From positions 10-64,009 of the forward strand of contig JBBRUX010000011.1 of NCBI GenBank assembly GCA_038247415.1: 64,000 bases of DNA. Reading direction: 5' to 3'. Both the position numbers and the translations under genes were made by a program. This stretch comes from Chitinivibrionales bacterium (GTDB lineage Bacteria; Fibrobacterota; Chitinivibrionia; Chitinivibrionales; WJKA01). This document shows positions 14,177 to 43,819 of this stretch, in pieces; within the stretch, counting starts at the first letter, position 1, and the number at the start of each line of letters is the position of its first letter. The notes under the pieces were generated by a model, which worked only from the letters and a program-made list of their open reading frames with translations, had not been told where the DNA came from and did not search any database.

Positions 14177-17095
14177 TTACTTTTTCTTGCCTTTTTTAGC
14201 TCCTGGCTTTGCCTTAGGAGCAACCTTTTTAACAGGTGCATCTTTTTTAGCAACGGGCTTTGCTACTGCCTTTTTTGCTGGAGCAGCTTTTTTGGCTGCT
14301 GGAGCTTTCTGAGCAGCTGGTTTCTTAGCAATCATTGGATTAGCAGCAGCGTCGAGTGCGGCTTGTGCAGCTGCAAGGCGTGCTATGGGTACTCGGTATG
14401 GTGAGCAGCTTACATAGTCCATTCCTGCAGCAACGCAGAACTTGACTGATTTTGCTTCGCCACCATGTTCGCCACAGATACCAACCTTAAGATTAGGACG
14501 CGTTGTGCGACCAAGCTTGATACCCATCTTGACAAGTTGACCAACACCACTCTGATCGAGTGACTGGAATGGATCGTCTTTGAAAATTGCTTTTCCACCT
14601 TCGTTTTCGCCCATTGAATAAATAGGCAAGAATCGACCCGCATCGTCGCGAGAAAGACCAAGGGTCATTTGTGTAAGATCGTTTGTTCCAAAGCTGAAGA
14701 ATTCAGCAGTTTCAGCAATTTCGTCTGCCAAAAGAGCTGCGCGAGGAATTTCGATCATGGTACCAACCATATAAGGAACCTTGATACCAGATGCCTTTAT
14801 GAGAGCATCCGCAATTTCACGGGTCTGCTTTTCGAGAATTTGAAATTCTTTTTTGTCGATAACAAGGGGATGCATGATTTCAGGCAAAACCTTGATACCT
14901 TTTTTCGTGCATTCGATTGCAGCTTGGATGATAGCTGTAACCTGCATTTCGAGAATTTCTGGATACGTGATGCACAAGCGACAACCGCGATGACCAAGCA
15001 TTGGGTTTGACTCATGCAACTGTTCGCAGCGATGGGTAATTTTTTCTGCAGACAATCCGGTGATCTGAGAAAGCTTAGCCACACCCGCAGCATCTTTTGG
15101 AGTAAACTCATGCAATGGAGGATCGATAAGTCGAATGGTAACAGGAAGCCCGTTCATTGCAGTAAAGATACCAGCAAAGTCTGCCCGCTGAATAGGTAGA
15201 AGTTTTGCCAGAGCTTTTTTGCGTGTTTCGAGATTTTCTGCAACAATCATTTCCTGAATAGCAAGACGACGTTCTTCGGTATCAAAGAACATGTGTTCGG
15301 TACGGCACAATCCAATTCCCTGTGCACCCATCTTGATTGCATTTTCAGCATCGTATGGTGTATCTGCATTGGTACGCACTTTAATAGTGCGGATTTTGTC
15401 GGCCCATCCCATAAGTGTGTAAAAACTTTCGGGAAGGATTGGCTTCTTAAGCGGCAAAGAACCAGTGTACACATCCCCCAAAGATCCATCAAGAGTGAGC
15501 CAATCACCTTGATTAATAATCTTGCCACCAATTGTCATTTGTTTCTTTTCATAATTGATGTCGAGGGCTTCGCATCCTACGACGCAGCATTTTCCCCAAC
15601 CACGAGCAACCACCGCAGCATGAGATGTTTTGCCACCCGTTGCGGTAAGAATACCTTGTGCCGCATGCATACCACCAACATCTTCGGGGCTTGTTTCTTT
15701 ACGAACAAGAAGAACTTTTTCTCCTGCAGCAGCCATAGCTTCGGCTTCGGCAGCGGTAAAAACAACTTTACCAGCAGCAGATCCAGGAACAGCGTTGATA
15801 CCAGAAGCAATCTTGGCATTCTTAAGCTGTTCTTTGCCAACTTTTTCACTGTCGATAACAGGATAGAAAAGGCGTTCGATGTCATCTGAATTTACACGGG
15901 CAACAGCCTGTTCTTTTGTAATAACCGGTTTCACAGCAAGAGCAGCATATTGTGCAGGAAGATATTTCTTCTTGACAAGATCGGCAGCCTTTGCTTTAGA
16001 AAGAAGCGGTTGTGTGGCTTGCTCAACTGCAATTTGAAAGGCAGCAGCAGGCGAACGCTTGCCGGTACGGCACTGAAGCATGAAAAGCTTTTCTTCTTCA
16101 ACCGTAAATTCGAGATCCTGCATTTCTTTGTAGTAGCTCTCAAGAATAGCGCGCACTGCACAAAGTTGGTCGAACACCTTAGGCATTTGATCTTCGAGTG
16201 CAGAAAGCTTAAGAGGGGTACGAATACCAGCAACAACATCTTCGCCCTGAGCGTTAATAAGATAGTCGCCGTAGAATGTGTTTTCGCCGGTGTTGGGGTC
16301 GCGGGTAAAGCAGACGCCGGTACCCGAAGAGTCACCCTTGTTGCCATAAATCATTTGTACAACATTGACGGCGGTTCCCTTGAGGTCGGTGATCTTTTCA
16401 ACGCGACGATAGGTGATGGACTTCTCAGCTTCCCAGGAACCAAACACCGCCTTGATTGCACCCCAAAGCTGATCGAGAGGATCCTGCGGAAATTCGGAGC
16501 CTTTCTTTTCCTTGTAAAAATCTTTGAACTGATTGCAAAGTTCTTTTAAACTTTCTGCAGGAATTTCTGGGTCGTTCTTGATGCCGAGTTTGTTCTTCAT
16601 GGCATGAAGCATGTGCTCCATCGGATCTTTTGAAAGGCCCATGGCCGTTGTCGAAAACATCTGGATAAAACGGCGATAGGAGTCGTAGGCAAAACGAGCG
16701 TTACCGGTTTTTGCAGCAAGACCTTCAACCGATTTGTCGTTGAGACCGAGGTTAAGAATTGTCTCGAGCATACCGGGCATCGAACGAGCCGCACCCGATC
16801 GTACCGATACCAGCAGAGGATCCTTAGCATCGCCAAGTTTCTTGCCCGTGCACTTTTCAAGTTTCTTCAGGGATTCGAGAACTTCCTTTTCCATGCCAAC
16901 GGGAAACTTGCGATTGAGATTGTAGTACTCTTCGCAGGTGGGGATACTGACTGTGAAACCGGCAGGAACCGGCAAACCGATCGAGGTCATCTCCATGAGG
17001 CCGATGCCCTTACCGCCCAAAACATCTTTGGTTAGATTTGAGCCGGTTGCTTCAGCTTTACCACCGCCATAAAAAAACACATGCTTATTGGCCAT
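14177..17095 (-). CDS. ppdK: Pyruvate, phosphate dikinase with Lys/Ala/Pro-rich C-terminal tail
   Basis: PLLVSVRSGA, NAQGEDVVAGIRTP, GGKTSHAAVVARG (phospho-His), GIGLCRTEHMF, FSFGTNDLTQ, GICGEHGG, VSCSPYRVPIARLAAAQ. Confidence 0.97.
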   Translation of the reverse strand: MANKHVFFYGGGKAEATGSNLTKDVLGGKGIGLMEMTSIGLPVPAGFTVSIPTCEEYYNLNRKFPVGMEKEVLESLKKLEKCTGKKLGDAKDPLLVSVRSGAARSMPGMLETILNLGLNDKSVEGLAAKTGNARFAYDSYRRFIQMFSTTAMGLSKDPMEHMLHAMKNKLGIKNDPEIPAESLKELCNQFKDFYKEKKGSEFPQDPLDQLWGAIKAVFGSWEAEKSITYRRVEKITDLKGTAVNVVQMIYGNKGDSSGTGVCFTRDPNTGENTFYGDYLINAQGEDVVAGIRTPLKLSALEDQMPKVFDQLCAVRAILESYYKEMQDLEFTVEEEKLFMLQCRTGKRSPAAAFQIAVEQATQPLLSKAKAADLVKKKYLPAQYAALAVKPVITKEQAVARVNSDDIERLFYPVIDSEKVGKEQLKNAKIASGINAVPGSAAGKVVFTAAEAEAMAAAGEKVLLVRKETSPEDVGGMHAAQGILTATGGKTSHAAVVARGWGKCCVVGCEALDINYEKKQMTIGGKIINQGDWLTLDGSLGDVYTGSLPLKKPILPESFYTLMGWADKIRTIKVRTNADTPYDAENAIKMGAQGIGLCRTEHMFFDTEERRLAIQEMIVAENLETRKKALAKLLPIQRADFAGIFTAMNGLPVTIRLIDPPLHEFTPKDAAGVAKLSQITGLSAEKITHRCEQLHESNPMLGHRGCRLCITYPEILEMQVTAIIQAAIECTKKGIKVLPEIMHPLVIDKKEFQILEKQTREIADALIKASGIKVPYMVGTMIEIPRAALLADEIAETAEFFSFGTNDLTQMTLGLSRDDAGRFLPIYSMGENEGGKAIFKDDPFQSLDQSGVGQLVKMGIKLGRTTRPNLKVGICGEHGGEAKSVKFCVAAGMDYVSCSPYRVPIARLAAAQAALDAAANPMIAKKPAAQKAPAAKKAAPAKKAVAKPVAKKDAPVKKVAPKAKPGAKKGKKK

Positions 17096-17423: not shown

Positions 17424-19838
17424 ATGAAATCCAACAAGCCAACAGATTTTATCTATGCCGATGCCCGTGAGCAATATGCAGCATGGAATGTCGATACCGA
17501 AAAAGCGATAGCTCAAACTCTGGCTACTCCCCTTTCTCTCCATTGTTGGCAAGGCGATGACGTAACCGGTTTCGAAAATGCATCGGGAATCAGCGATGGC
17601 GGAATCATGGCAACCGGAAATTATCCGTATAAGGCGCAAACCCCCAACCAGTTACGGTCTGATATCCAAAAGGCTCTCTCACTTATTGGGGGATCTCATC
17701 GCGTCAACCTTCATGCCATTTATGCAGAGATAGGGTCTAAAAAAGTAGACAGATGCGATTTAGCTCCGGAACATTTTTCCACGTGGGTTTCTTGGGCAAA
17801 AGAGCTCGGTGTGGCGCTCGATTTTAATCCATCGTATTTTTCGCACCCTCATGCAGCATCCGGTTTTACTCTGAGCCATCGCGATGCAGCAATTCGACGC
17901 TACTGGATCGATCATGGTATCGCGTGTAGAAAAATTGCCGAATCGTTTGGGAAAAAGCTCAAAAGTCCCTGTATCACCAATTTCTGGATTCCTGATGGCT
18001 ACAAAGATCTCCCTTCCGACCGTATCGGACCACGAGAACGCCTCATAGAATCTCTCGATGCGATTTTTGCAGAACCCATTAACAAACGCTACAACCGAGA
18101 TGCTGTCGAATGCAAACTCTTTGGCATCGGATCCGAGTCCTATGTAACTGGCTCACACGAATTTTATATGGGATACTCTCTCGCCCGGGGCATCATTCCA
18201 ACCCTCGATGCAGGACACTTTCATCCTACCGAAACTATAGCGGATAAAATTTCATCGATCATGCTATATAGCCACGAGCTTCTTTTGCACGTTAGCCGCG
18301 GAATCCGTTGGGACAGCGATCATATTGTAATCACGACCGACGACCTCATTGCTACTGCGCGTGAAATTGTTCAGTCCGAACGCCTTGGAGAAATCCATAT
18401 TAGCCTCGATTATTTTGATGCTTCAATTAATCGCATTGCAGCGTGGGTGATCGGTATGCGATCTATGCAAAAAGCACTCCTCATGGCGCATCTCGAACCG
18501 TCAGCACTCCTTAACGGCGCCGAAAACTCAGGAGATCATACAACCCGTCTTGCCCTTTTCGAAGAGCGCAATTCGCGGCCCTTCGCAGCAATCTGGAATG
18601 AATTTTGTTCCCGCGCAAATGTCCCAACGGGAAATGATTGGCTTGCAGATGTTCACCAGTACGAGGCAACCGTTTTAAGCAAACGTTCCACCGTGTTGGT
18701 TGCTAAAGATACCGCACTTAACGATCTCATGTTCATCTCCCATGTTCTGGGACGCAACGAAATGTACGTTCAAGCGGGGGGCGGCAACACATCGGTCAAA
18801 TGTGCCGATGGCACATCTATGTTGATTAAAGCGAGTGGAACACCTTTGGGCGAAATGAGCGAAACGCAAGGGTGGGTAAAAGTAGATCTAGCTAAGGTAA
18901 CATCTCTTTTTAATCAACCACACATCATGAAACTTTCCGCTGCAAAACGCGAACAAAAAGTTCTTGCCGTTTTGGGTGAGAGTATCATCGAACCTCTCAA
19001 TGCCCGACCTTCGGTAGAAACACCCCTTCACGCTTTGCTTGGCACAGTGATAATGCATAGCCATCCGGTTATTGCAAACGCGCTCACCTGCCATCCCGAT
19101 GGTAAGAATATCCTAGCCTCGCTCGAGCTTAACCCCAAAAACCCAGCGCTCTGGGTCCCCTATACAGATCCAGGTTCTTCCCTTGCCTATTCGCTCTTTG
19201 ATGCACTTGCTCTCCACACACACAATTATGGAGTTTCTCCGACAGCCATATTCCTTCAGAATCATGGATTTTTTTGTGTTGGGGAAACATCAACCGAATG
19301 CGTAGAACTTCACCTTCTCTGGATGAACACTCTTGAATCCCACCTCAGAACACACGCACATTCCGCAGACATACAAGAAGCCGATTTGGCAGCACTTCGA
19401 AAAAGTATTAAACAGGCGGCACGAGCTTTAAAAAAACCTACGCCCCGCATTCGGGTGTCCTGTGATCCAACCCTTGCAAGTGCACTCGGTTCAGATCTCA
19501 TTAACGTCTTTAAGGGTTCTCTAACTCCCGACCATGTTGTATACATGGGTCCCCATGCAATTTTTATCCCTTCTGGTTGCCATCCGCGTGCTCTTGAGGA
19601 AGCTTGCATAGTATATACCAATAAGAACAATCAATTCCCGCGCGTTTTTGTGCTCGAAAAACAAGCAATAGCTTTTGCTGGTGATTCAGAGAAAAAGCTC
19701 GACGCTACCGAAGCATTAGCCGTCTCGGCAGTACGTACGGCTCTGGCGAGTGGGAATACGTACCGGCATATGCCAAAAAGGGATATCGATTTTATCCTCA
19801 ACTGGGAAGCGGAACACTATCGCGCAAAGCAATGTTGA
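17424..19838 (+). CDS. rhaA: L-rhamnose isomerase fused to a C-terminal class II aldolase domain
   Basis: RhaA motifs SLHCWQGDDV, ATGNYP, NFWIPDG, VECKLFGIGSESY, LDAGHFHPTE, HVSRGIRWDSDH. After ~aa 425: GGGNTSVK, IKASG, RPSVET.LH, HSHP, LQNHG, FILNWEAEHYR. Confidence 0.9.
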   Translation: MKSNKPTDFIYADAREQYAAWNVDTEKAIAQTLATPLSLHCWQGDDVTGFENASGISDGGIMATGNYPYKAQTPNQLRSDIQKALSLIGGSHRVNLHAIYAEIGSKKVDRCDLAPEHFSTWVSWAKELGVALDFNPSYFSHPHAASGFTLSHRDAAIRRYWIDHGIACRKIAESFGKKLKSPCITNFWIPDGYKDLPSDRIGPRERLIESLDAIFAEPINKRYNRDAVECKLFGIGSESYVTGSHEFYMGYSLARGIIPTLDAGHFHPTETIADKISSIMLYSHELLLHVSRGIRWDSDHIVITTDDLIATAREIVQSERLGEIHISLDYFDASINRIAAWVIGMRSMQKALLMAHLEPSALLNGAENSGDHTTRLALFEERNSRPFAAIWNEFCSRANVPTGNDWLADVHQYEATVLSKRSTVLVAKDTALNDLMFISHVLGRNEMYVQAGGGNTSVKCADGTSMLIKASGTPLGEMSETQGWVKVDLAKVTSLFNQPHIMKLSAAKREQKVLAVLGESIIEPLNARPSVETPLHALLGTVIMHSHPVIANALTCHPDGKNILASLELNPKNPALWVPYTDPGSSLAYSLFDALALHTHNYGVSPTAIFLQNHGFFCVGETSTECVELHLLWMNTLESHLRTHAHSADIQEADLAALRKSIKQAARALKKPTPRIRVSCDPTLASALGSDLINVFKGSLTPDHVVYMGPHAIFIPSGCHPRALEEACIVYTNKNNQFPRVFVLEKQAIAFAGDSEKKLDATEALAVSAVRTALASGNTYRHMPKRDIDFILNWEAEHYRAKQC

Positions 19839-19872
19839 TGGATCTATCGGGCCTATTGTATAATTACTATAT

Positions 19873-21798
19873 ATGAAACGAGACGCTATCGCGCTCGTGG
19901 TGCAACCGTATAAAAATCCGCTTGTACCACGAGTCGAACTTAAAAACTATATCGATCTTTTTGTCACGTCACTCTGTGATTTGATTATTAAGCATCCGTC
20001 GTTACGCCTTAACCTGGTGCTTTCGGGGGTACATCTAGAACTTCTCGACCCGCATCTTTCGCTCAAATTACGAGATTTGGTAAAAAATTGGCGACTAGAA
20101 ATTTTAAGCCCTGGATACACCGAAGTTTTTGCCAGCTTTTCTTCCCGATGGATTTTTTCCGAAAATCTTACTCTTGGCCAAACTATTTTTTTGGAAAAGC
20201 TAGGCACAAAACCTTCGGGGTATGCAGCGCCATTTTCAAACTGGGAACCTTCCTATCTCGATATAATTACCACGTCTGGATTTTCGTATGTAACACTATC
20301 GCGATCGCTCTTTCCACCCCGCACAAGAACTGCCTGCGGCTATTGGTCCACCGAACATGCCGGATCATCTCTTTTTATTGTGCCTCAAATCGTTATTCCA
20401 GCAATGCATGTACCCATCGACCTGCTTACAGAACTAGAAACTGCTCTCGCAAGCGATCAAAGCAGTATACCTCCTGGAATTGCGCAATGCCTCTGCATAA
20501 GCTATTTAACCCCGCTCCTGTTGCAAACAGAAACTTCGCTTGCATGGCTTGCGGCAGCAGCAACGGCTTTGGAGCTTAACGCGCTTGCCTATCAGACCAT
20601 TTGTATGTCGGAATACTTTGGCATGACGTCCCCCCTCTCTTTACAATATATTCCACCAAGTTTATTTACAAAACGCGAAGATGTGCGTACAGTCCCCTAT
20701 TTTCTCAATTATTTGCACACCTACGATCAAATTGGCATCATGCAACGAAAAATGATTGAGCTCACCGAACAGTGTACGGCTCTTCCCGAATCTGCCTTTA
20801 AATCTGGCATTAAAAAACAGCTCTGTCAACTCCACGATATTAATCGGTACCTTCCCCATAAAGAACGGGGATTTATCGAGCCATCCGATAGACACGCATG
20901 CTTTTCTCAGATGATCGCTATCGAAAAAGCCCTTTACGAATCGATACACCCAAAAGGCGGGCAAATCCGCATTGCCGATTTTATGCGCAATGGCACCAAA
21001 TGCATCATCATGGAAAATCGTTCTTGTAAAGCATATCTCGATCATAAAAATGGTGGTCAGCTTTTTGCTCTCGACTATCGTCACCGTACTGTAAACGTAG
21101 CAGCCGCCTATTCGGGGCAACGTCACGACTTACCTGCGATAACTGCTGCAGGCATCTCAAAAACAATGTTTATCGATCACATGCTCGATTCTTTGGCTAA
21201 TCATGCCGAATTTGTATCCGGCGAAAACAGTGAACGCGGTGATTTTGTTGCAAACCCATTTTCTTATACCGTTAAGAAAACCCCCGAAGGAGTAAAATTG
21301 CTCCTTTCGCGCAATGGGAGTGTACTGGTTTCCGACAAGACACTTCCTGTGTTTATGGAAAAAGTTTTTGGACTCGATGGCGATGGGGCAGTTATGTCTT
21401 TTGCCTACAAACTTTCTACCCACTCACTTATGCCTATCGAATTTCTTTTGGCTATCGAACTCAATTTTTTTGTTCCCGGAGCCCTTTACAACAAGGCCTT
21501 TTTTGCAGAAGGGCGCGCCCACAAAACCGACCTTTCTAAAGCATGTATCCAAAGCCATTCATGCACAAAATTTGCGCTCGAAGATCATGTGTTTGGGTAT
21601 ACAATAGGGATACACTCCCAAAAACCGGTGACAGTCTGGTGTTACCCACTGGGTCACACAAAACAAGAACAATACCAAGGAACAGCAGTTGTACTTACTA
21701 CGCTTGTTCACCTTGATGCTACTACCCCATTCTCGCTACCGGGCAAAATAAAAATTCGCAAAACGAGGCGGCTGGAGAAAATTCCCGATGCGATCTGA
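19873..21798 (+). CDS. GH57-like (4-alpha-glucanotransferase architecture) protein with DUF1926-like C-terminus, probably catalytically inactive
   Basis: LNLVLSG, LEILSPGYTE, LGTKPSG...WEP, GYWSTEHAG and C-terminal GGQLFALDYR...FIDH...GDFV match the GH57 layout. Canonical catalytic motifs are degenerate. Confidence 0.7.
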   Translation: MKRDAIALVVQPYKNPLVPRVELKNYIDLFVTSLCDLIIKHPSLRLNLVLSGVHLELLDPHLSLKLRDLVKNWRLEILSPGYTEVFASFSSRWIFSENLTLGQTIFLEKLGTKPSGYAAPFSNWEPSYLDIITTSGFSYVTLSRSLFPPRTRTACGYWSTEHAGSSLFIVPQIVIPAMHVPIDLLTELETALASDQSSIPPGIAQCLCISYLTPLLLQTETSLAWLAAAATALELNALAYQTICMSEYFGMTSPLSLQYIPPSLFTKREDVRTVPYFLNYLHTYDQIGIMQRKMIELTEQCTALPESAFKSGIKKQLCQLHDINRYLPHKERGFIEPSDRHACFSQMIAIEKALYESIHPKGGQIRIADFMRNGTKCIIMENRSCKAYLDHKNGGQLFALDYRHRTVNVAAAYSGQRHDLPAITAAGISKTMFIDHMLDSLANHAEFVSGENSERGDFVANPFSYTVKKTPEGVKLLLSRNGSVLVSDKTLPVFMEKVFGLDGDGAVMSFAYKLSTHSLMPIEFLLAIELNFFVPGALYNKAFFAEGRAHKTDLSKACIQSHSCTKFALEDHVFGYTIGIHSQKPVTVWCYPLGHTKQEQYQGTAVVLTTLVHLDATTPFSLPGKIKIRKTRRLEKIPDAI

Positions 21799-22411
21799 TG
21801 CCCTTGATATCACCATCGAAAGCCGGCACGACGCATTGTGGATCTCACTTGCTGGCCCTTTCCATAATGAACAGGGCCCTAATATTCGGGAAAAAATCGA
21901 GGGGCTTCTCTCCGATGGGGCTCGCGAATTTATTCTTAACTTACAAGGTGTTACCGAAGTCGACAGCACGATTGTGGAAACTATTTTAAAGGTACTCAAT
22001 ACCGTTCGCAGTAAGCATGGCGAACTGCGCCTTGTCTTTCGCAACGAGGCAGTAACAAAAGCATTTAGCCCCTACCGACATCTTTTTCTTATCTATCCCG
22101 ACAGTCAATCGGTTGAAGGTGGTGGAGTGTTTGGAGCCCTGAGGCGCCAGAGCCGGACTCTTTTTCGTAAAACAGGCATTCGAATCTCCCGACCTGTCGC
22201 CTTGTTTCTTTTGTTCGCCCTCTGTGGTTGGTTCTTATCGCTTCTTTTTATCATCCATCTGCAAAACAAACGTATTTCCGAACAGTCAACACTACTTCAC
22301 ACGCTTTCACAAGACCAGATAAACCTCGATGCCGAGGTTACAGCATTACGAGAACGGGTTCGACCACTAGAGCAGCTCGGTTTAATACTCCCCGACTCAT
22401 CCCGGAATTAG
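21788..22411 (+). CDS. STAS (anti-sigma antagonist-like) domain + TM helix + coiled coil
   Basis: ISLAGPF...FILNLQGVTEVDST...GELRL STAS pattern; hydrophobic VALFLLFALCGWFLSLLFII; heptad C-terminus. Confidence 0.75.
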   Translation: MRSDALDITIESRHDALWISLAGPFHNEQGPNIREKIEGLLSDGAREFILNLQGVTEVDSTIVETILKVLNTVRSKHGELRLVFRNEAVTKAFSPYRHLFLIYPDSQSVEGGGVFGALRRQSRTLFRKTGIRISRPVALFLLFALCGWFLSLLFIIHLQNKRISEQSTLLHTLSQDQINLDAEVTALRERVRPLEQLGLILPDSSRN

Positions 22412-22415
22412 CGCT

Positions 22416-23150
22416 ATGAAACGCACCTTTCATCGAATACTACGCGGTGCAATTGTTCACGGGGGGCAAATCTGGATCTCCGAGCTCTTCACCTACCTCA
22501 TTGTTGGAAGTGTCATTCTCACCTTTTTTATACTCAGCGGCCTCGTAATCGTGCAAGAAAATCGCATTCGTAACAACGATGCATGCGCACTCGTTTATCG
22601 CCAATCAACGGCGCTATTGTCAAGACAGCACACCGAATTACTCGATTTATATCGCATCATGAATGCCATTACTCTTGCCGCTCCCAAAAAACTCGACCCT
22701 CAATTTCTTTGTTCTCTCGCAGAACTAGTGTACGAAAACAGCAAAACCTACGGGTACGATCCGCTCCTTGTTTTGGCAGTTATTGAAGTTGAAAGCGTAT
22801 TTAAAAACAATGCGCTAGGGCGCTTTAAAAGCGGCGCTGTTTCAGGAGCCATGGGCCTCATGCAAATCCAAATGCAAACAGCGTTTGAAATTGCAACCGA
22901 TCTTGACATTCCACTAAAAGACAGCTCTGATATTCTTAAACCCGAAATAAACGTAGCATTAGGGGTAGCATACCTCACGCGTGAAATTGCTCAATTTAAA
23001 AGTTTTAAGCTTGGACTTTTGGCCTATAATCAAGGGCCTGCAACTATTCGCACCTCGCTCTCAACAAACACTCCCTTATCGGTTGACTACTACAACAAAG
23101 TGCTTAAGCGCTATTACCGGCTTAAAAAACAAGTTGACACATTAGGATAG
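22416..23150 (+). CDS. Membrane-anchored lytic transglycosylase (SLT domain)
   Basis: DPLLVLAVIEVES (catalytic Glu), GAMGLMQI, NVALGVAYL, LLAYNQG; N-terminal TM segment. Confidence 0.9.
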   Translation: MKRTFHRILRGAIVHGGQIWISELFTYLIVGSVILTFFILSGLVIVQENRIRNNDACALVYRQSTALLSRQHTELLDLYRIMNAITLAAPKKLDPQFLCSLAELVYENSKTYGYDPLLVLAVIEVESVFKNNALGRFKSGAVSGAMGLMQIQMQTAFEIATDLDIPLKDSSDILKPEINVALGVAYLTREIAQFKSFKLGLLAYNQGPATIRTSLSTNTPLSVDYYNKVLKRYYRLKKQVDTLG

Positions 23151-23360: not shown

Positions 23361-24153
23361 GTGAATAATAAAAAATCCGAAATAACTGGAATTGCCTTTG
23401 ATAAACTGTTTGCGCTGTTTGAACTAACTCAAACCGCAGCGCAAGTACAAGCTGCCCGATCAGTGGATCGTGCTCTTGTAGTACGCAACTGGCTATTTGG
23501 TTGGTACATCGTAGAGTTTGAAAACGGCGGCGCTGAACGAGCTGAACTTTATGGAAAAAAACTACTTCCGCAGATTTCTGCCGAGCTTAAAAAAAACGGC
23601 TTAACTGGTGTTTCACTCACAAGTTTAAAGCAATTCAGACTCTTTTACCAAACCTACAAGGAGATTGGGCAGGCAATGCCTGGCCAATCTCTTTGGCCCA
23701 CATTTGAAAACATTAGTCAGGCATCGCCTGACCAATCGGGAACAATCTTACCAGAGCCTACAACTTTGCAATCAGTAAATTCTAAAATAGGCAGTCACTT
23801 TGCAATTGGTTGGACTCATTATGTAACCCTTCTTACGATAAAAAATGAAGCGGCACGTCGGTTTTATAAGATTGAAACCGCAACAAATGGATGGGGCTAC
23901 CGTGAATTGGAAAGACAAGTTAATTGTGAATTTTTTTGACCGATACGTAAAAACAAAGGATGAAAAACCAACAATAGGAATTCTACTATGCCTTAGTAAA
24001 AGTGATGAATTGGTTGAATTAACGTTACCCGAAAATTCCAATATCTATGCCTCAGAGTATCAGCTCTACTTGCCATCAAAAGAAGAACTTATAAGGCAAT
24101 TGGAAGAGGCGCAATCTGAGTGGAAGGTTCAACATGGTGACAGTGATAAATGA
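23361..24153 (+). pseudogene. YhcG/DUF1016 PDDEXK-family nuclease pseudogene (central deletion plus frame break)
   Basis: N-part RNWLFGWYIVEFE.GGAERAELYG, WTHYVTLL, W.YRELERQ. C-part in another frame: VNFFDRYVKT.DEKPTIGILLC...IYASEYQLYLP. The nuclease core between them is missing (junction ~23925). Confidence 0.85.
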
Positions 24154-33894: not shown

Positions 33895-34728
33895 TCATCC
33901 CTTTCCTAATCGCTTCCCAGTAAGCTGCAGTGGCAAATTATTCTCACTCGTCACTCTGCTTCGTCCTAACTCTTTTTCTGTTTCTTTGCGGGCAACGCCA
34001 GCTACACGGCCACCGCGCTTAGCAACAACTCTATTTTTTACGAATGATTCGGGCTTTTCAATTTGCGAAATTTCGGTTGTTACTCGTTCACCAAGCATAG
34101 TGAATATCAATTCGAGATCGGTCATATGATCACGCACGTTCTGAGTTTTCTTCGTTAAGCCTTTGACGTTTTTATATTCCGAAGGTGTTAATCCGAACGT
34201 TGCCTTTGAGATTTCTGCAGTGAGTATGGCGTAATCAATTTCACTCCGAATGCCACGTTCTTTCCATTCACCAGTCAAATTCTGGCGGATGGCGACGCCA
34301 CGCAGGCGTTTATCGATCCAGTCTTTGGGGTACCCCTTGAGCTCATACAACTCTTTCATTCGCTCCTGAGCGATTTCCGGATTTTCAATTTCCTGGACAC
34401 GCTCAAAACCAACCTGAGCAAGCCATCGTTTGAATGGTTCGGCTTGTGGCGAGGGAATTGATTGAATGATACGAAACATGGCTTTGGTGTCAGCGCAATC
34501 CGTGGCGTATTTTTTTCCATCCACTGCCTCTAATTTCAGTTGTACCCAAATTGGGGACGACTGAAGATCAATAAATTCGCGCTGTTTGATTTTACCCCAA
34601 TATTGACGAGGTGTAGGCGAATTGGTTAAGGCTTCAACGATGTCCACTACCGAAAAAAACCAATTTTCATCGTGCCATATATGCCTTATTTTCTTACTTT
34701 CAAATACAACAATTTTATTTTCTTCCAT
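33895..34728 (-). CDS. Bro-N domain protein (phage antirepressor-like)
   Basis: WFFSVVDIVEALT, PRQYW, LKLEAVDGKKYATD, RIIQSIPSPQAEPFKRWLA, LT.EWKERG, RDHMTDLELIF. Confidence 0.9.
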   Translation of the reverse strand: MEENKIVVFESKKIRHIWHDENWFFSVVDIVEALTNSPTPRQYWGKIKQREFIDLQSSPIWVQLKLEAVDGKKYATDCADTKAMFRIIQSIPSPQAEPFKRWLAQVGFERVQEIENPEIAQERMKELYELKGYPKDWIDKRLRGVAIRQNLTGEWKERGIRSEIDYAILTAEISKATFGLTPSEYKNVKGLTKKTQNVRDHMTDLELIFTMLGERVTTEISQIEKPESFVKNRVVAKRGGRVAGVARKETEKELGRSRVTSENNLPLQLTGKRLGKG

Positions 34729-40545: not shown

Positions 40546-42246
40546 TTACATCGCACTACGCTGTTCTATACGAGCCCACGAGTCTTTAAGCGTTACAGTA
40601 CGATTAAAAATTGGAGCGCCTTCTTTAGACTCTAAAGGATCGGCAAAGAAATAGCCAACACGTTCAAATTGAAACGATTCACCACCTCGAGCAAATGCCA
40701 CACGTGGCTCAGCTTTGCACGTATTTGTAACACTAAGCGACGATGGATTAAGAACCGATAGATAATCTGTTGCGTCGGGATTTTCCTGCGTAAACAGCCT
40801 ATCATACATGCGTATCGGCACGGAAATGGCATGTTGCGCCGAAACCCAATGAATAGTAGCCTTAGGTGATCGACCATCGGGAGCCTGCCCGCCTTTGGTT
40901 TGCGGGTCGTACGTTGCGTGAATCTCTAAAACAGCACCCGTTGCTGGATCGGTAACAACGGATGTTGCTGTAATAAAATACCCATACCGCAGCCGAACCT
41001 CTTTGCCAATAGAAAGTCGGTAATATTTCTTTGGTGGATCGAGGCGAAAATCATCATGCTCAATATAAAGCTCACGCGAAAAAGGAATCTGCCGAGTTCC
41101 ATCTGCTGGATTCTCTGGATTATTGACCGCGGTAAGCTCTTCGACAACACCTTGCGGATAGTTGTCGATAATAACTTTTACCGGGTTAAGCACCACTTGC
41201 ACCCTTTTTGCACGCTTATTTAAATCTTCCCGTATGCAATGTTCTAGCAAGGCAACATCAACCACAGAATCGCGCTTAGCAACCCCAATGCGTTCTGCAA
41301 AATCAGCAATCGCGGCAGATGTATACCCTCTGCGTCGAAGCCCTGCAATGGTCGGCAAGCGAGGATCATCCCAGCCATCGACATGCTTTTTTTGCACAAG
41401 TTCTAAAAGTTTACGCTTGCTCATAACGGTATACGACAAATTAAGCCGGGCAAATTCTATCTGACGTGGATGATGAATTGGTAACTGATCGAGAAACCAA
41501 TCGTACAAGGGTCGATGATCTTCGTATTCGAGCGAACAGAGCGAGTGCGTCACGCCTTCGATAGAATCTTCGAGTCCATGAGCCCAGTCGTACATAGGAT
41601 ATACGTTCCAACGGGTTCCCTGTCGATGATGCGGCTGTTTAATAATGCGATACATAACCGGATCACGCATATTGATATTTGGCGACCCCATATCGATCTT
41701 AGCTCGCAACGTGCGGGTTCCTTCTGCAAATTCTCCTGCTTGCATCCGTTCAAAAAGATCCAGATTTTCGTCAACTGTTCTGCTGCGATAGGGACTATCT
41801 TTTCCCTTTTCGGTAAGTGTACCGCGATACGCCCTAATTTCATCTGCCGACAAATCGCACACATACGCCTTCGAAGCCTTGACAAGCTCGAGTGTCCAGG
41901 AATAGATACGATCGAAATAATCGGAAGCATAAAAAAGGTTGTTTTTAAAATCACAGCCAAGCCATTTTACATCCTCGATAATTGCCTTGACATATTCGTC
42001 TTCCTCTTTACTCGGATTAGTATCATCAAACCGAAGATTGAACTGTCCACCAAATTCACATGCCATGCCATAATCGATATGCAGTGCTTTTGCATGCCCG
42101 ATATGCAGGTGGCCATTTGGCTCGGGAGGGAACCGCGTAATAACCTTAGTGCATTTCCCCTCTTTAAGATCGGCCACTATTGCTTCATGAATAAAATTTG
42201 ACGAAGCACCCGACGCAATCGAACCATTTTCTGGAAGTAACGACAT
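40546..42246 (-). CDS. glnS: Glutamine--tRNA ligase
   Basis: [65 protein letters not shown]. Confidence 0.97.
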
Positions 42247-42328
42247 GACTATTCCTTATATAACTATGTATAAACGCCCATTCTAAATGGGCAGATCCAC
42301 CTTATTATCGGTAACAAACTCTTTCGAG

Positions 42329-43819
42329 TCAAGACTCTGTGCGTGTTGCAACGGCATTCTGGATAAAAGCAATCGCTGTTTGCAGACGCGAACAGACCTG
42401 CTCTTTTCCCAACACTTCCAAAAGCTCAAAGAGCCCAGGACCAAAACTCACGCCACTTACTGCAAGTCGTGTTGGATGAATTAATACCCCAAAAGCAATG
42501 CCCAACGAATCTCCATAATTTTTATAGAGAGCCTCTAAAGCAGCATGCTCAAACGATTCTGCCTTTGAAAGTAGCTCACAAAGATCGGCAAGTATTTTAA
42601 TGGCATCAGGAACAAAATATTTTCTGACCGCTTTTTCTTCGTACTGTACAGGCGCAATAAAAAAGTATGTTGCAGACTCCACCATGTCCACAATTTTCTT
42701 GGAGCGCTCTTTAAGAAGATCAATAACCTTGACAAGAGTGGTGTCAGAAACCGGGGTAGCGTTAGGTACCCAACCCTTTTGCTTCCAAAAAGGAACAACC
42801 AATTCTGCCAGCGATATGCTTGTTCGCTCCCGCATATAAAGGCCGTTCATCCATTCGAGTTTTTTCTCGTCGAATACAGATGCCTTAGGTGATACTTGAC
42901 CCAAAGAAAAAACTGATATCAGCTCTTCCTGTGAAAGTTTTTCTCGTTCATCTCCGTCCCCAAGCGACCACCCTAAAAGCGCAAGAAAATTAAAAAGCGC
43001 CTCGGGAAGATACCCTTGATTTTTATAATCCAGAACCGATGCCGCGCCTTTTCGTTTAGAGAGCTTTCCGCCATCGGCAGATAAAATCACGGGCATATGC
43101 GCAAAAATAGGAGGTGTCCAACCAAAAGCTTCATATAGCAAAACATGCCGTGGCGTTGAGGCAATCCACTCATCACCCCGCAAAACATGAGAAATTTCCA
43201 TTGCATGATCGTCAACGACGTTGGCAAGATGATACGTCGGAAAACCATCTGTTTTCATGAGAACCAGATCATCCAGCACAGCACTTTTATATTCGATAGC
43301 ACCCCGTATGAGGTCGTTAAAAGCCACAACCCTATCCTGCGGGATTTTTAGCCGAATGATATGGGGTGTGTTTTCTGCAAGCAAACGCGCACTTTCTTGT
43401 GCAGGCAGATTTCTGCACTGTTTGTCGTAGCCTGGATCGAGTTTGTTTTTTTCTTGGTAATTCCGGAGTTCCTCAAGACGTTGCGGTGTACAAAAACATC
43501 GATATGCATGGCCAGATTCTAAAAGCTGCTGTGCATGTTTTCGGTAGAGGTCAACTCGCTCCGATTGAACATACGACCCATAGGCGCCACCAACATCGGG
43601 ACCTTCGTCCCACGTAATGCCAAGCCATTGAAGACTTTCGTAGATTTCTTTGCAGGCATCTTCTTGGTAGCGACTTCGATCGGTATCCTCTATGCGAAGA
43701 ATAAAAGTTCCACCCATGCGTTTGGCAAAGAGGTAATTAAAAAGTGCAGTGCGCGCACCACCAACATGAAGATATCCTGTTGGGGACGGGGCAAATCGAA
43801 CTCGAATCGAAGACCTCAT
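42329..43819 (-). CDS. gltX: Glutamate--tRNA ligase
   Basis: RVRFAPSPTGYLHVGG, LRIEDTD, PTYHLANVVDDH, RGDEW, KLSKR. Confidence 0.97.
   Translation of the reverse strand: MRSSIRVRFAPSPTGYLHVGGARTALFNYLFAKRMGGTFILRIEDTDRSRYQEDACKEIYESLQWLGITWDEGPDVGGAYGSYVQSERVDLYRKHAQQLLESGHAYRCFCTPQRLEELRNYQEKNKLDPGYDKQCRNLPAQESARLLAENTPHIIRLKIPQDRVVAFNDLIRGAIEYKSAVLDDLVLMKTDGFPTYHLANVVDDHAMEISHVLRGDEWIASTPRHVLLYEAFGWTPPIFAHMPVILSADGGKLSKRKGAASVLDYKNQGYLPEALFNFLALLGWSLGDGDEREKLSQEELISVFSLGQVSPKASVFDEKKLEWMNGLYMRERTSISLAELVVPFWKQKGWVPNATPVSDTTLVKVIDLLKERSKKIVDMVESATYFFIAPVQYEEKAVRKYFVPDAIKILADLCELLSKAESFEHAALEALYKNYGDSLGIAFGVLIHPTRLAVSGVSFGPGLFELLEVLGKEQVCSRLQTAIAFIQNAVATRTES

Follow-up and report, generated by a model that had tools for sequence, protein, structure and literature searches.

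The window analysed here is a 64,000-nucleotide stretch of a Chitinivibrionales genome of the phylum Fibrobacterota (GenBank assembly GCA_038247415.1, contig JBBRUX010000011.1, positions 10 to 64,009 of the forward strand). Our subject is a cluster of three plus-strand open reading frames within positions 19873-23150 of it: gene A, which resembles a glycoside hydrolase of family 57 (GH57); gene B, which joins a STAS domain to a transmembrane (TM) helix; and gene C, a membrane-anchored lytic transglycosylase with an SLT domain (Table 1). The frames are packed closely. A runs to a TGA at 21796-21798 and overlaps B, which starts with an ATG at 21788, by 11 nt; the TAG of B (22409-22411) is followed after 4 nt by the ATG of C at 22416. 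Direct reading of these junctions bears out an earlier note, made from the sequence of the window, which had described the genes as tightly coupled through an 11-bp overlap and a 4-bp gap. Comparable overlaps or short gaps are seen in relatives, for which we draw on 56 related loci with A, all from Fibrobacterota metagenome-assembled genomes (labelled Chitinivibrionales, Chitinispirillales and the like). The operon is real and is widespread in the phylum; what we propose for its function comes from gene context. No NCBIfam model scored above its cut-off for A, B or C.

Table 1. Features of the A-B-C operon in the window and, in the last four rows, of related loci in other genomes.
Feature	Position	Strand	Description or evidence
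Gene A	19873..21798	+	641 aa; cytoplasmic GH57 4-alpha-glucanotransferase-like pseudoenzyme ('4AGT-like')
A residues 1-360, (beta/alpha)7 barrel and helical subdomain	19873..20952	+	VIA Z 24-26 to other solved GH57 catalytic domains
A residues 362-632, C-terminal beta-sandwich (DUF1926), mutarotase-like	20956..21768	+	PF09095; VIA Z ~21 to galactose mutarotase-like proteins
A F121-S-N-W-E-P126, loop at former nucleophile position	20233..20250	+	HMMER alignments to 1K1W
A Ser210, column of GH57 proton-donor Asp	20500..20502	+	sequence alignment with L071 and L085
Gene B	21788..22411	+	207 aa; bitopic: STAS, basic linker, TM helix, periplasmic helix
B residues 7-103, cytoplasmic STAS domain	21806..22096	+	Pfam, AF2 model, Foldseek
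B residues 136-196, TM helix (~136-158) running into periplasmic helix	22193..22375	+	AF2 model, hydropathy
Gene C	22416..23150	+	244 aa; membrane-anchored family-1 lytic transglycosylase: N-terminal TM helix, helical linker, SLT
C residues 105-218, SLT catalytic domain	22728..23069	+	Glu126 at 22791-22793
Sigma-70-like hexamer pair TTGATG, 18 nt, TATAAT (candidate)	19835..19864	+	consensus scan; 9 nt upstream of A's ATG
Secreted-protein gene after C	L070 8756-10120	+	
Secreted-protein gene after C	L071 4343-5761	-	
Secreted-protein gene after C	L085 5109-6497	-	
Divergent B and TM-SLT pair	L110 6929-8603		also L111, L112 (metagenome contigs)

By fold, gene A belongs to GH57. Pfam finds Glyco_hydro_57 (PF03065) at residues 30-141 with 27.2 bits (cut-off 21.2) and AmyA-gluTrfs_C/DUF1926 (PF09095) with 76 bits. 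An AlphaFold2 (AF2) model built on 39 homologues (pLDDT 88.1) matches the 4-alpha-glucanotransferase of Thermococcus litoralis (TLGT, PDB 1K1W/1K1X) over its full length, with a Foldseek E-value of 2.4e-33 and a TM-score of 0.72 against 1k1x and, in VIA, a Z of 31.1 over 566 aligned residues at a root-mean-square deviation (rmsd) of 3.7. The profile of 39 sequences also reaches TLGT (E 1.3e-24), at an identity of 17-18%. Together, these matches uphold the earlier assignment of A to the layout of a GH57 4-alpha-glucanotransferase. Hydropathy gives A neither a signal peptide nor a TM helix, and the protein is therefore cytoplasmic.

What has become of the catalytic residues? The TLGT segment G-V-W-L-T-E-R-V-W (1K1W) pairs with G-Y-A-A-P-F-S-N-W of A by phmmer and by the 39-sequence profile alike, placing Phe121 at the position of Glu123. 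Within the order this nucleophile column holds Phe in 38 of 39 sequences and Tyr in the other; across the phylum (18 sequences) it reads F10 S4 Y1 H1 A1 G1 and is never Glu or Asp. The acid/base column is far more mixed (D13 K8 E5 Q5 H3 R2 S1 N1 F1 in the 39 order sequences) and is Ser210 in the window; its placement, made by sequence alignment, runs through the 'LLD' Asp of loci L071 and L085, which is set as the donor in Table S1 of PMC6037648. The first conserved sequence region (CSR-1), HNHQP in TLGT, is VVQP (VQPYK) in the window, as had been read before, and [HQR]-P-[YFC]-K-N in relatives. The Glu/Asp pair had been called lost from the letters alone, and the alignment to TLGT agrees. For comparison, the AmyC/branching-type GH57 of the same genome retains HAHLP, WLPECG and DAELFGHW.

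The gene is not in decay. Complete copies of A carry no stops and no frameshifts, 33 columns are invariant among the 39 sequences, and in the seven pairs whose dS is not saturated (dS<1.5) dN/dS is 0.057-0.184, so A is not evolving neutrally. The most striking invariant block, S122 N123 W124 E125 P126 (39/39 in the order), stands directly after the lost nucleophile; E76, which is the CSR-2 Glu, E84 and D322 are likewise invariant in the 39 sequences. Among the 18 phylum-wide sequences W124 is kept in all, E125 in 16 and D322 in 11, and N324 and E84 are not conserved. Across the phylum, the universal positions come down to W124, E161 and a small number of Gly, Arg, Lys and Asp residues. As judged from these alignments, A is a GH57 fold without the canonical catalytic pair, held under purifying selection. 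It shares with TLGT the whole-chain fold, the CSR-2 Glu and Trp124, and it differs in both catalytic positions (Glu123 to Phe121, donor Asp to Ser210), in the replacement of CSR-1 and in the setting of its gene, in an operon with membrane proteins.

Proteins of this kind have been described before. The survey of Martinovicova and Janecek (2018; PMC6037648, Table 1 and Table S1) lists as '4AGT-like proteins' 63 bacterial GH57 sequences with a mean length of 623 aa, nearly all from spirochaetes, that lack one or both catalytic residues and that its authors consider very probably incapable of typical GH57 activity. ACX74280.1 of Fibrobacter succinogenes S85 (618 aa) is among them. All five motif strings that Table S1 gives for ACX74280.1 (QMSPS, GVLEFL, FNSSLV, LLDIPSEPTE and PAMAPLYFR) recur in the A gene of genome G189 (locus L085, 618 aa), which sits in an A-B-C operon as the syntenic counterpart of window A. 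Judged by these strings, by length and by synteny, window A is orthologous to a listed member of the group. It has in common with the group the length class, the GH57+DUF1926 architecture and the missing catalytic residues, and its own top match in both structure and sequence is TLGT. It stands apart from the most distant copies in the phylum, L085 included, in an identity of only 16-19% and in invariant motifs of its own (HPYKN, GYTEPF, PPFSNWEPS and QDINR). In a protein-atlas search, the third-closest cluster to A (score 0.98) is one of GH57+DUF1926 proteins from Spirochaetota, and a homologue search started from the phylum-wide alignment of A added nothing to the Chitinivibrionia proteins already retrieved. 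PMC6037648 is a sequence survey, and its consulted sections give neither gene context nor function for the group. The statement in the earlier note that no description existed must therefore be divided: the class of dead GH57 proteins is published, and the three-gene module is something we did not find described.

Gene B is recognized by Pfam as STAS (39.6 bits, residues 8-100). Its AF2 model (pLDDT 87.5) comprises the STAS fold, a basic linker of low confidence and one continuous helix at residues 135-196. A hydrophobic stretch covers residues ~133-160, and six Lys or Arg among the 15 residues directly before it place the STAS domain in the cytoplasm. The best Foldseek matches are RsbV (6m36) and SpoIIAA (1th8), with TMt 0.80-0.85 and rmsd 1.8-2.0. 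Among 13 deeply divergent homologues, the juxtamembrane, TM and periplasmic motifs are better conserved than the STAS domain: the motif R-K-T-G-x-R-I-S stands directly before the TM helix, conservation reaches at least 90% at T129, G130, R132, S134, G147, W148, P193 and G198, and Q159 is invariant. G147 and W148 lie within the TM helix, Q159 marks its periplasmic end, and P-L-x-x-L-G closes the periplasmic helix. For B, dN/dS is 0.040-0.132 (pairs with dS<1.5). Searched against 1.84 billion representatives, the B profile gave 2351 matches at the level of the STAS domain, and about 25 of the 150 listed have the full architecture (E<=1e-21). The cluster annotations of the divergent homologues are 'anti-anti-sigma factor' or 'hypothetical' only. 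Fused forms of B, sought among proteins of 378-2000 aa, were not found at E<=1e-5, which is weak evidence.

Does B work by partner switching, as its STAS domain might suggest? The earlier note had read the 'DST' serine as retained and had pointed to this mode of action. The column of that serine (S60, n=30) reads D19 E4 S2 N2 P2 K1 and the next one S14 A7 T4 G2 M1 P1 E1. No kinase, anti-sigma factor or PP2C phosphatase occurs among the recurrent neighbours in the 56 loci; RsbW-type genes are found elsewhere in the genome. Without a conserved serine, and without a kinase or phosphatase that recurs beside the operon, phospho-partner-switching is unlikely. What stands of the first description of B is the STAS domain, the single TM helix and the long helix that follows; the likeness to FtsL/DivIC that it proposed is one of topology only. 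With the anti-sigma-factor antagonists SpoIIAA and RsbV, B shares the STAS fold, and it is unlike them in its C-terminal TM and periplasmic helices and in having no conserved phosphorylatable serine.

Gene C carries an SLT domain (Pfam, 74.2 bits) behind an N-terminal TM helix, where hydropathy reaches its maximum (residues ~19-51). Across 27 phylum-wide sequences E126, G147, M149, Q150, A203, Y204, N205, G207 and Y233 are invariant and S127 is conserved in at least 90%; dN/dS is 0.052-0.210 (pairs with dS<1.5). The Glu-Ser, GLMQ and AYNxG motifs are thus kept and the TM helix is present, in agreement with the earlier view of an intact membrane-anchored SLT, and from these motifs C is most likely an active lytic transglycosylase that cuts periplasmic peptidoglycan. 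It is one of seven SLT loci in the genome and for that reason is probably a dedicated or specialised enzyme. The best partial NCBIfam match, that to the Borrelia BB0259 flagellar transglycosylase, covers the SLT part only (60 bits, cut-off 234). C resembles the membrane-bound family-1 lytic transglycosylases (MltC, EmtA and BB0259, the last treated in PMC8517470) in having an SLT domain with Glu-Ser, GLMQ and AYNxG, and it is unlike them in its anchor, an N-terminal TM helix and helical linker with no lipobox, in scoring below every equivalog cut-off and in always being preceded by a STAS-TM gene. In G189 the C gene (L085 6538-7268, minus strand) is interrupted by a one-nucleotide indel when compared with G170 and is either a pseudogene or the product of an assembly error. 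Three loci of family f13 have, directly after C, a gene for a secreted protein of 454-472 aa that is absent from the window's order; that of L070 is an OEP/TolC-type outer-membrane protein (81 bits).

The order A-B-C is kept wherever it can be read. Eight loci with truncated or fragmented A were set aside (L002, L011, L040, L045, L050, L053, L054 and L056, the last of which looks like a fold-back, frameshifted assembly). Among the others, all 45 that leave 650 nt or more behind A have B directly downstream, and C comes next in all 42 that leave at least 1500 nt. The flanks vary: pyruvate phosphate dikinase (PPDK) is upstream in 39 loci, RsmE is downstream in 17, and in the window a RhaA fusion separates PPDK from A. 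Seven genomes of other families (L070-L074, L085 and L086) have the same gene order with an A only 16-21% identical to that of the window. Whether the trio persists in relatives had been set as a check on the module, and it does persist across the Fibrobacterota.

Are the genes also gained and lost together? Of 296 Fibrobacterota genomes, 231 match the A profile at E<=1e-40. They belong to the families that have full-length B, namely f1, f3-f5, f7-f14 and f18; in f13 the B profile gives full-length matches in 148 of 151 genomes. Both are absent from f6, f15, f16, f19-f21 and nearly all of f17; f6 has A in 0 of 8 genomes and weak STAS-only matches to B or none. Four single genomes of 93-98% completeness, G009, G010, G013 and G066, lack both as well. 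By family, then, A and full-length B share presence and absence, if imperfectly. Over 23 loci, the three genes show mutual correlations of their distance matrices of r 0.89-0.90, compared with 0.75-0.77 against the neighbouring PPDK, which is soft evidence. The association of A, B and C is far beyond chance.

B and C also occur as a pair. P0104, the full-length B that diverges most, bears an additional C-terminal, periplasmic SH3_3-like domain (23.4 bits against a cut-off of 27), and B genes of this type are followed directly by a TM-SLT gene (tblastn 1e-31) in three of three metagenomic loci, L110, L111 and L112. The neighbours of these loci carry type IX secretion system sorting tails on C25 and M4/M36 peptidases. 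Neither tblastn nor hmmsearch with the A profile found A in their flanks, which cover 7 kb on each side in L110 and L111 and 2.7 kb upstream in L112. Because B-C occurs there without A, A appears to be an addition in Fibrobacterota that is not obligatory, and we infer an ancestral core of B and C to which A was added. If B-C works without A in those loci, their STAS domain would have another partner or none.

How might the three products act? Our favoured explanation, which we advance tentatively, is that the three genes form a single operon, inherited together, and that their products work jointly across the inner membrane. C would cut peptidoglycan in the periplasm while anchored in the inner membrane. 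B would be its bitopic partner, with the TM and periplasmic helices of B lying beside the TM and linker helices of C, and the STAS domain would serve as a cytoplasmic input or docking module. A, in the cytoplasm, would either bind a ligand without catalysis, most obviously an alpha-glucan, or dock on B as a scaffold. A cytoplasmic state would in this way govern how active C is or where it is placed. Contact among the three proteins, the ligand of A, and which way and to what end C is controlled are all proposals of this model. Fibrobacter is known for heavy glycogen turnover, and the genome studied here holds genes for glycogen-type glucan synthesis, with a GlgA-type synthase and three other GH57 genes; since it makes such glucans, an alpha-glucan ligand would be available to A, and a role of A as an alpha-glucan or maltodextrin sensor is plausible. 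Wall hydrolases are controlled from the cytoplasm by systems of the FtsEX-EnvC-amidase type. The logic that we propose for A-B-C would be like theirs, with a cytoplasmic component, a membrane-spanning adaptor whose coiled coil is periplasmic and a peptidoglycan hydrolase, and unlike them the trio has no homologous part and no ATPase, and its hydrolase is itself membrane-anchored.

Prediction of a complex between A and residues 1-130 of B, with alignments for each, gave run scores of 0.45, 0.00 and 0.00, a median below the 0.32 mark, in runs made without control pairs, and counts neither for nor against contact. Several observations weigh against action as a unit. The three B-C loci dispense with A, and if the indel in G189 is real, C is dispensable there. 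Full-length B occurs without A at E<=1e-40 in G232 and G235 (E 2e-41 and 7e-35), G262 has a match to the A profile (3e-43) with no B match listed, G021 (70% complete) has a partial A and no B, and G041 has A at a contig end with only a weak match to B. Kin share their history, so that the counts of synteny and the correlations overstate independence. The binding role of A is weakened by the donor Asp, kept in 13 of 39 order proteins and in the L071/L085 lineage, and by the invariant Glu125 four residues past the lost nucleophile, which make residual or new chemistry possible.

Could A, then, still be an enzyme, one that uses non-canonical residues such as Glu125, Glu84 or Asp322 on a cytoplasmic sugar, in a metabolic operon to which B is an accessory? 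Its substrate could be an alpha-glucan or a wall-recycling product freed by C. The invariance of S122-N-W-E-P126, E76, E84 and D322 in the order and the surviving donor Asp are in line with such an enzyme, and the barrel of A resembles polysaccharide deacetylases (Z 17-21), with a weak profile match of P-x-G-x-x-P-P-F-S-N-W-E to the HP0310 deacetylase 3qbu (E 0.26). Even so, we consider an enzymatic A decidedly unlikely. The nucleophile column is acidic in none of the 39 and 18 sequences, and no alternative catalytic pair is universal because D322, N324 and E84 are not conserved across the phylum; the deacetylase likeness is generic to the fold (Z ~20 against 31 for TLGT) and its sequence match is not significant, so we rejected A as a CE4-type deacetylase; and the opinion on typical GH57 activity in PMC6037648 (section 'Evolutionary relationships') points the same way. 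A second possibility takes B as a membrane-tethered anti-sigma-factor antagonist in classical partner switching, with A and C co-expressed or acting as inputs. The closeness of its STAS fold to RsbV and SpoIIAA, a match to the NCBIfam anti-sigma antagonist superfamily model (38 bits, below the cut-off of 53) and 11 HATPase_c_2 (RsbW-type) matches elsewhere in the genome are in keeping with it. It is nonetheless decidedly improbable: the 'DST' position is Ser in only 2 of 30 sequences and mostly Asp or Glu, the next column offers Ser or Thr in only 18 of 30, the conserved neighbours include neither a kinase or phosphatase nor a sigma factor, and the best-conserved parts of B are membrane-proximal and periplasmic, needless for a switch that is purely cytoplasmic.

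The topology of B, a single TM helix and a coiled coil, invites comparison with FtsB, FtsL and DivIC, and the trio might be an accessory of division or elongation in which B recruits a septal lytic transglycosylase; C, bitopic as well, has a matching layout, and the tail of B gives a weak match to DivIC (E 0.038, 14.2 bits). We rate this very unlikely and reject B as an FtsB or DivIC. Its scores with the DivIC model (PF04977), 11.8-14.2 bits, are well below the cut-off of 28.9 and no better than those of several unrelated ORFs of the genome, the genuine DivIC/FtsB gene lies on another contig (G000:C16:39099-39329, 58.5 bits), and the conserved neighbours of the operon are not division genes. 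Finally, adjacency could be maintained for reasons other than a shared function, with the products of A, B and C acting independently. Such independence agrees with the dispensability of A for B-C in other lineages, and is highly improbable given that it hardly explains the overlapping frames, an order unbroken in 45/45 and 42/42 loci between shifting flanks, and joint loss by family.

A more specific form of cross-membrane control by the trio would have the dead glycosidase read the state of alpha-glucan, and a STAS-TM adaptor found nowhere else switch a dedicated lytic transglycosylase on or off. In this detail we regard it as unlikely; if true, it would couple carbon storage to wall remodelling, growth or vesicle release. 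We found no description of the A-B-C operon, of the STAS-TM-helix architecture or of the strict pairing with SLT in the open-access literature searched. The dead GH57 class is known; the operon and the STAS-TM/SLT pairing appear to be new, within the known theme of hydrolases controlled by a membrane-spanning partner. Lytic transglycosylases are dangerous enzymes, and to our knowledge few of their regulators have been identified. A STAS-TM adaptor coupled to an SLT gene would, if the proposal is right, be a new mode of control for such an enzyme and a new job for the STAS fold, beyond sigma-factor switching and SulP transporters. For the '4AGT-like' proteins, the fixed place of A at the head of the operon and its strong purifying selection would give a first lead on their role, be it STAS binding or the binding of glucan without turnover. 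In the spirochaete members, including that of the minimal-genome Treponema pallidum, the same dead enzyme might serve in a related way. Fibrobacterota include major degraders of fibre in the gut, and experiments are feasible because cultured Fibrobacter carries the operon.

Around the operon, by Pfam, the window holds unrelated housekeeping genes. A sigma-70-like hexamer pair just upstream of A is a possible operon promoter, to be taken as a lead rather than a finding; a scan of the region for promoters and terminators gave 13 sites against 12.1 +/- 3.5 in shuffled sequence, not above background. Upstream of A are PPDK, on the other strand, and the RhaA-aldolase fusion; downstream of C are a DUF1016 gene, ThiL, a type II secretion/type IV pilus (T2SS/T4P)-type ATPase and UvrD. 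The fusion (17424-19838, plus strand, 804 aa) consists of L-rhamnose isomerase (RhaA, 623 bits) and a class II aldolase domain. In 39 related loci PPDK and A are immediate, divergent neighbours, and the fusion therefore looks like a lineage-specific insertion. PPDK itself (14177-17095, minus strand, 972 aa) ends in a Lys/Ala/Pro-rich tail of ~60 residues (…AKKPAAQKAPAAKKAAPAKK…KKGKKK) that recalls histone-H1-like tails; the PPDK of one relative, unlike that of the window, has only a short basic end. Directly 3' of the operon, the DUF1016 (YhcG-like nuclease) gene (23361-24153, plus strand) consists of two overlapping ORFs in different frames, 23361-23939, to which Pfam DUF1016_N matches, and 23845-24153, and is probably frameshifted. 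Farther away, two adjacent genes for class I tRNA synthetases of the Glu/Gln type (40546-43819, minus strand; 566 and 496 aa) encode tRNA-synt_1c catalytic domains with differing anticodon-binding domains, and a Bro-N domain protein (33895-34728, minus strand), a domain typical of phages and mobile elements, stands amid housekeeping genes.

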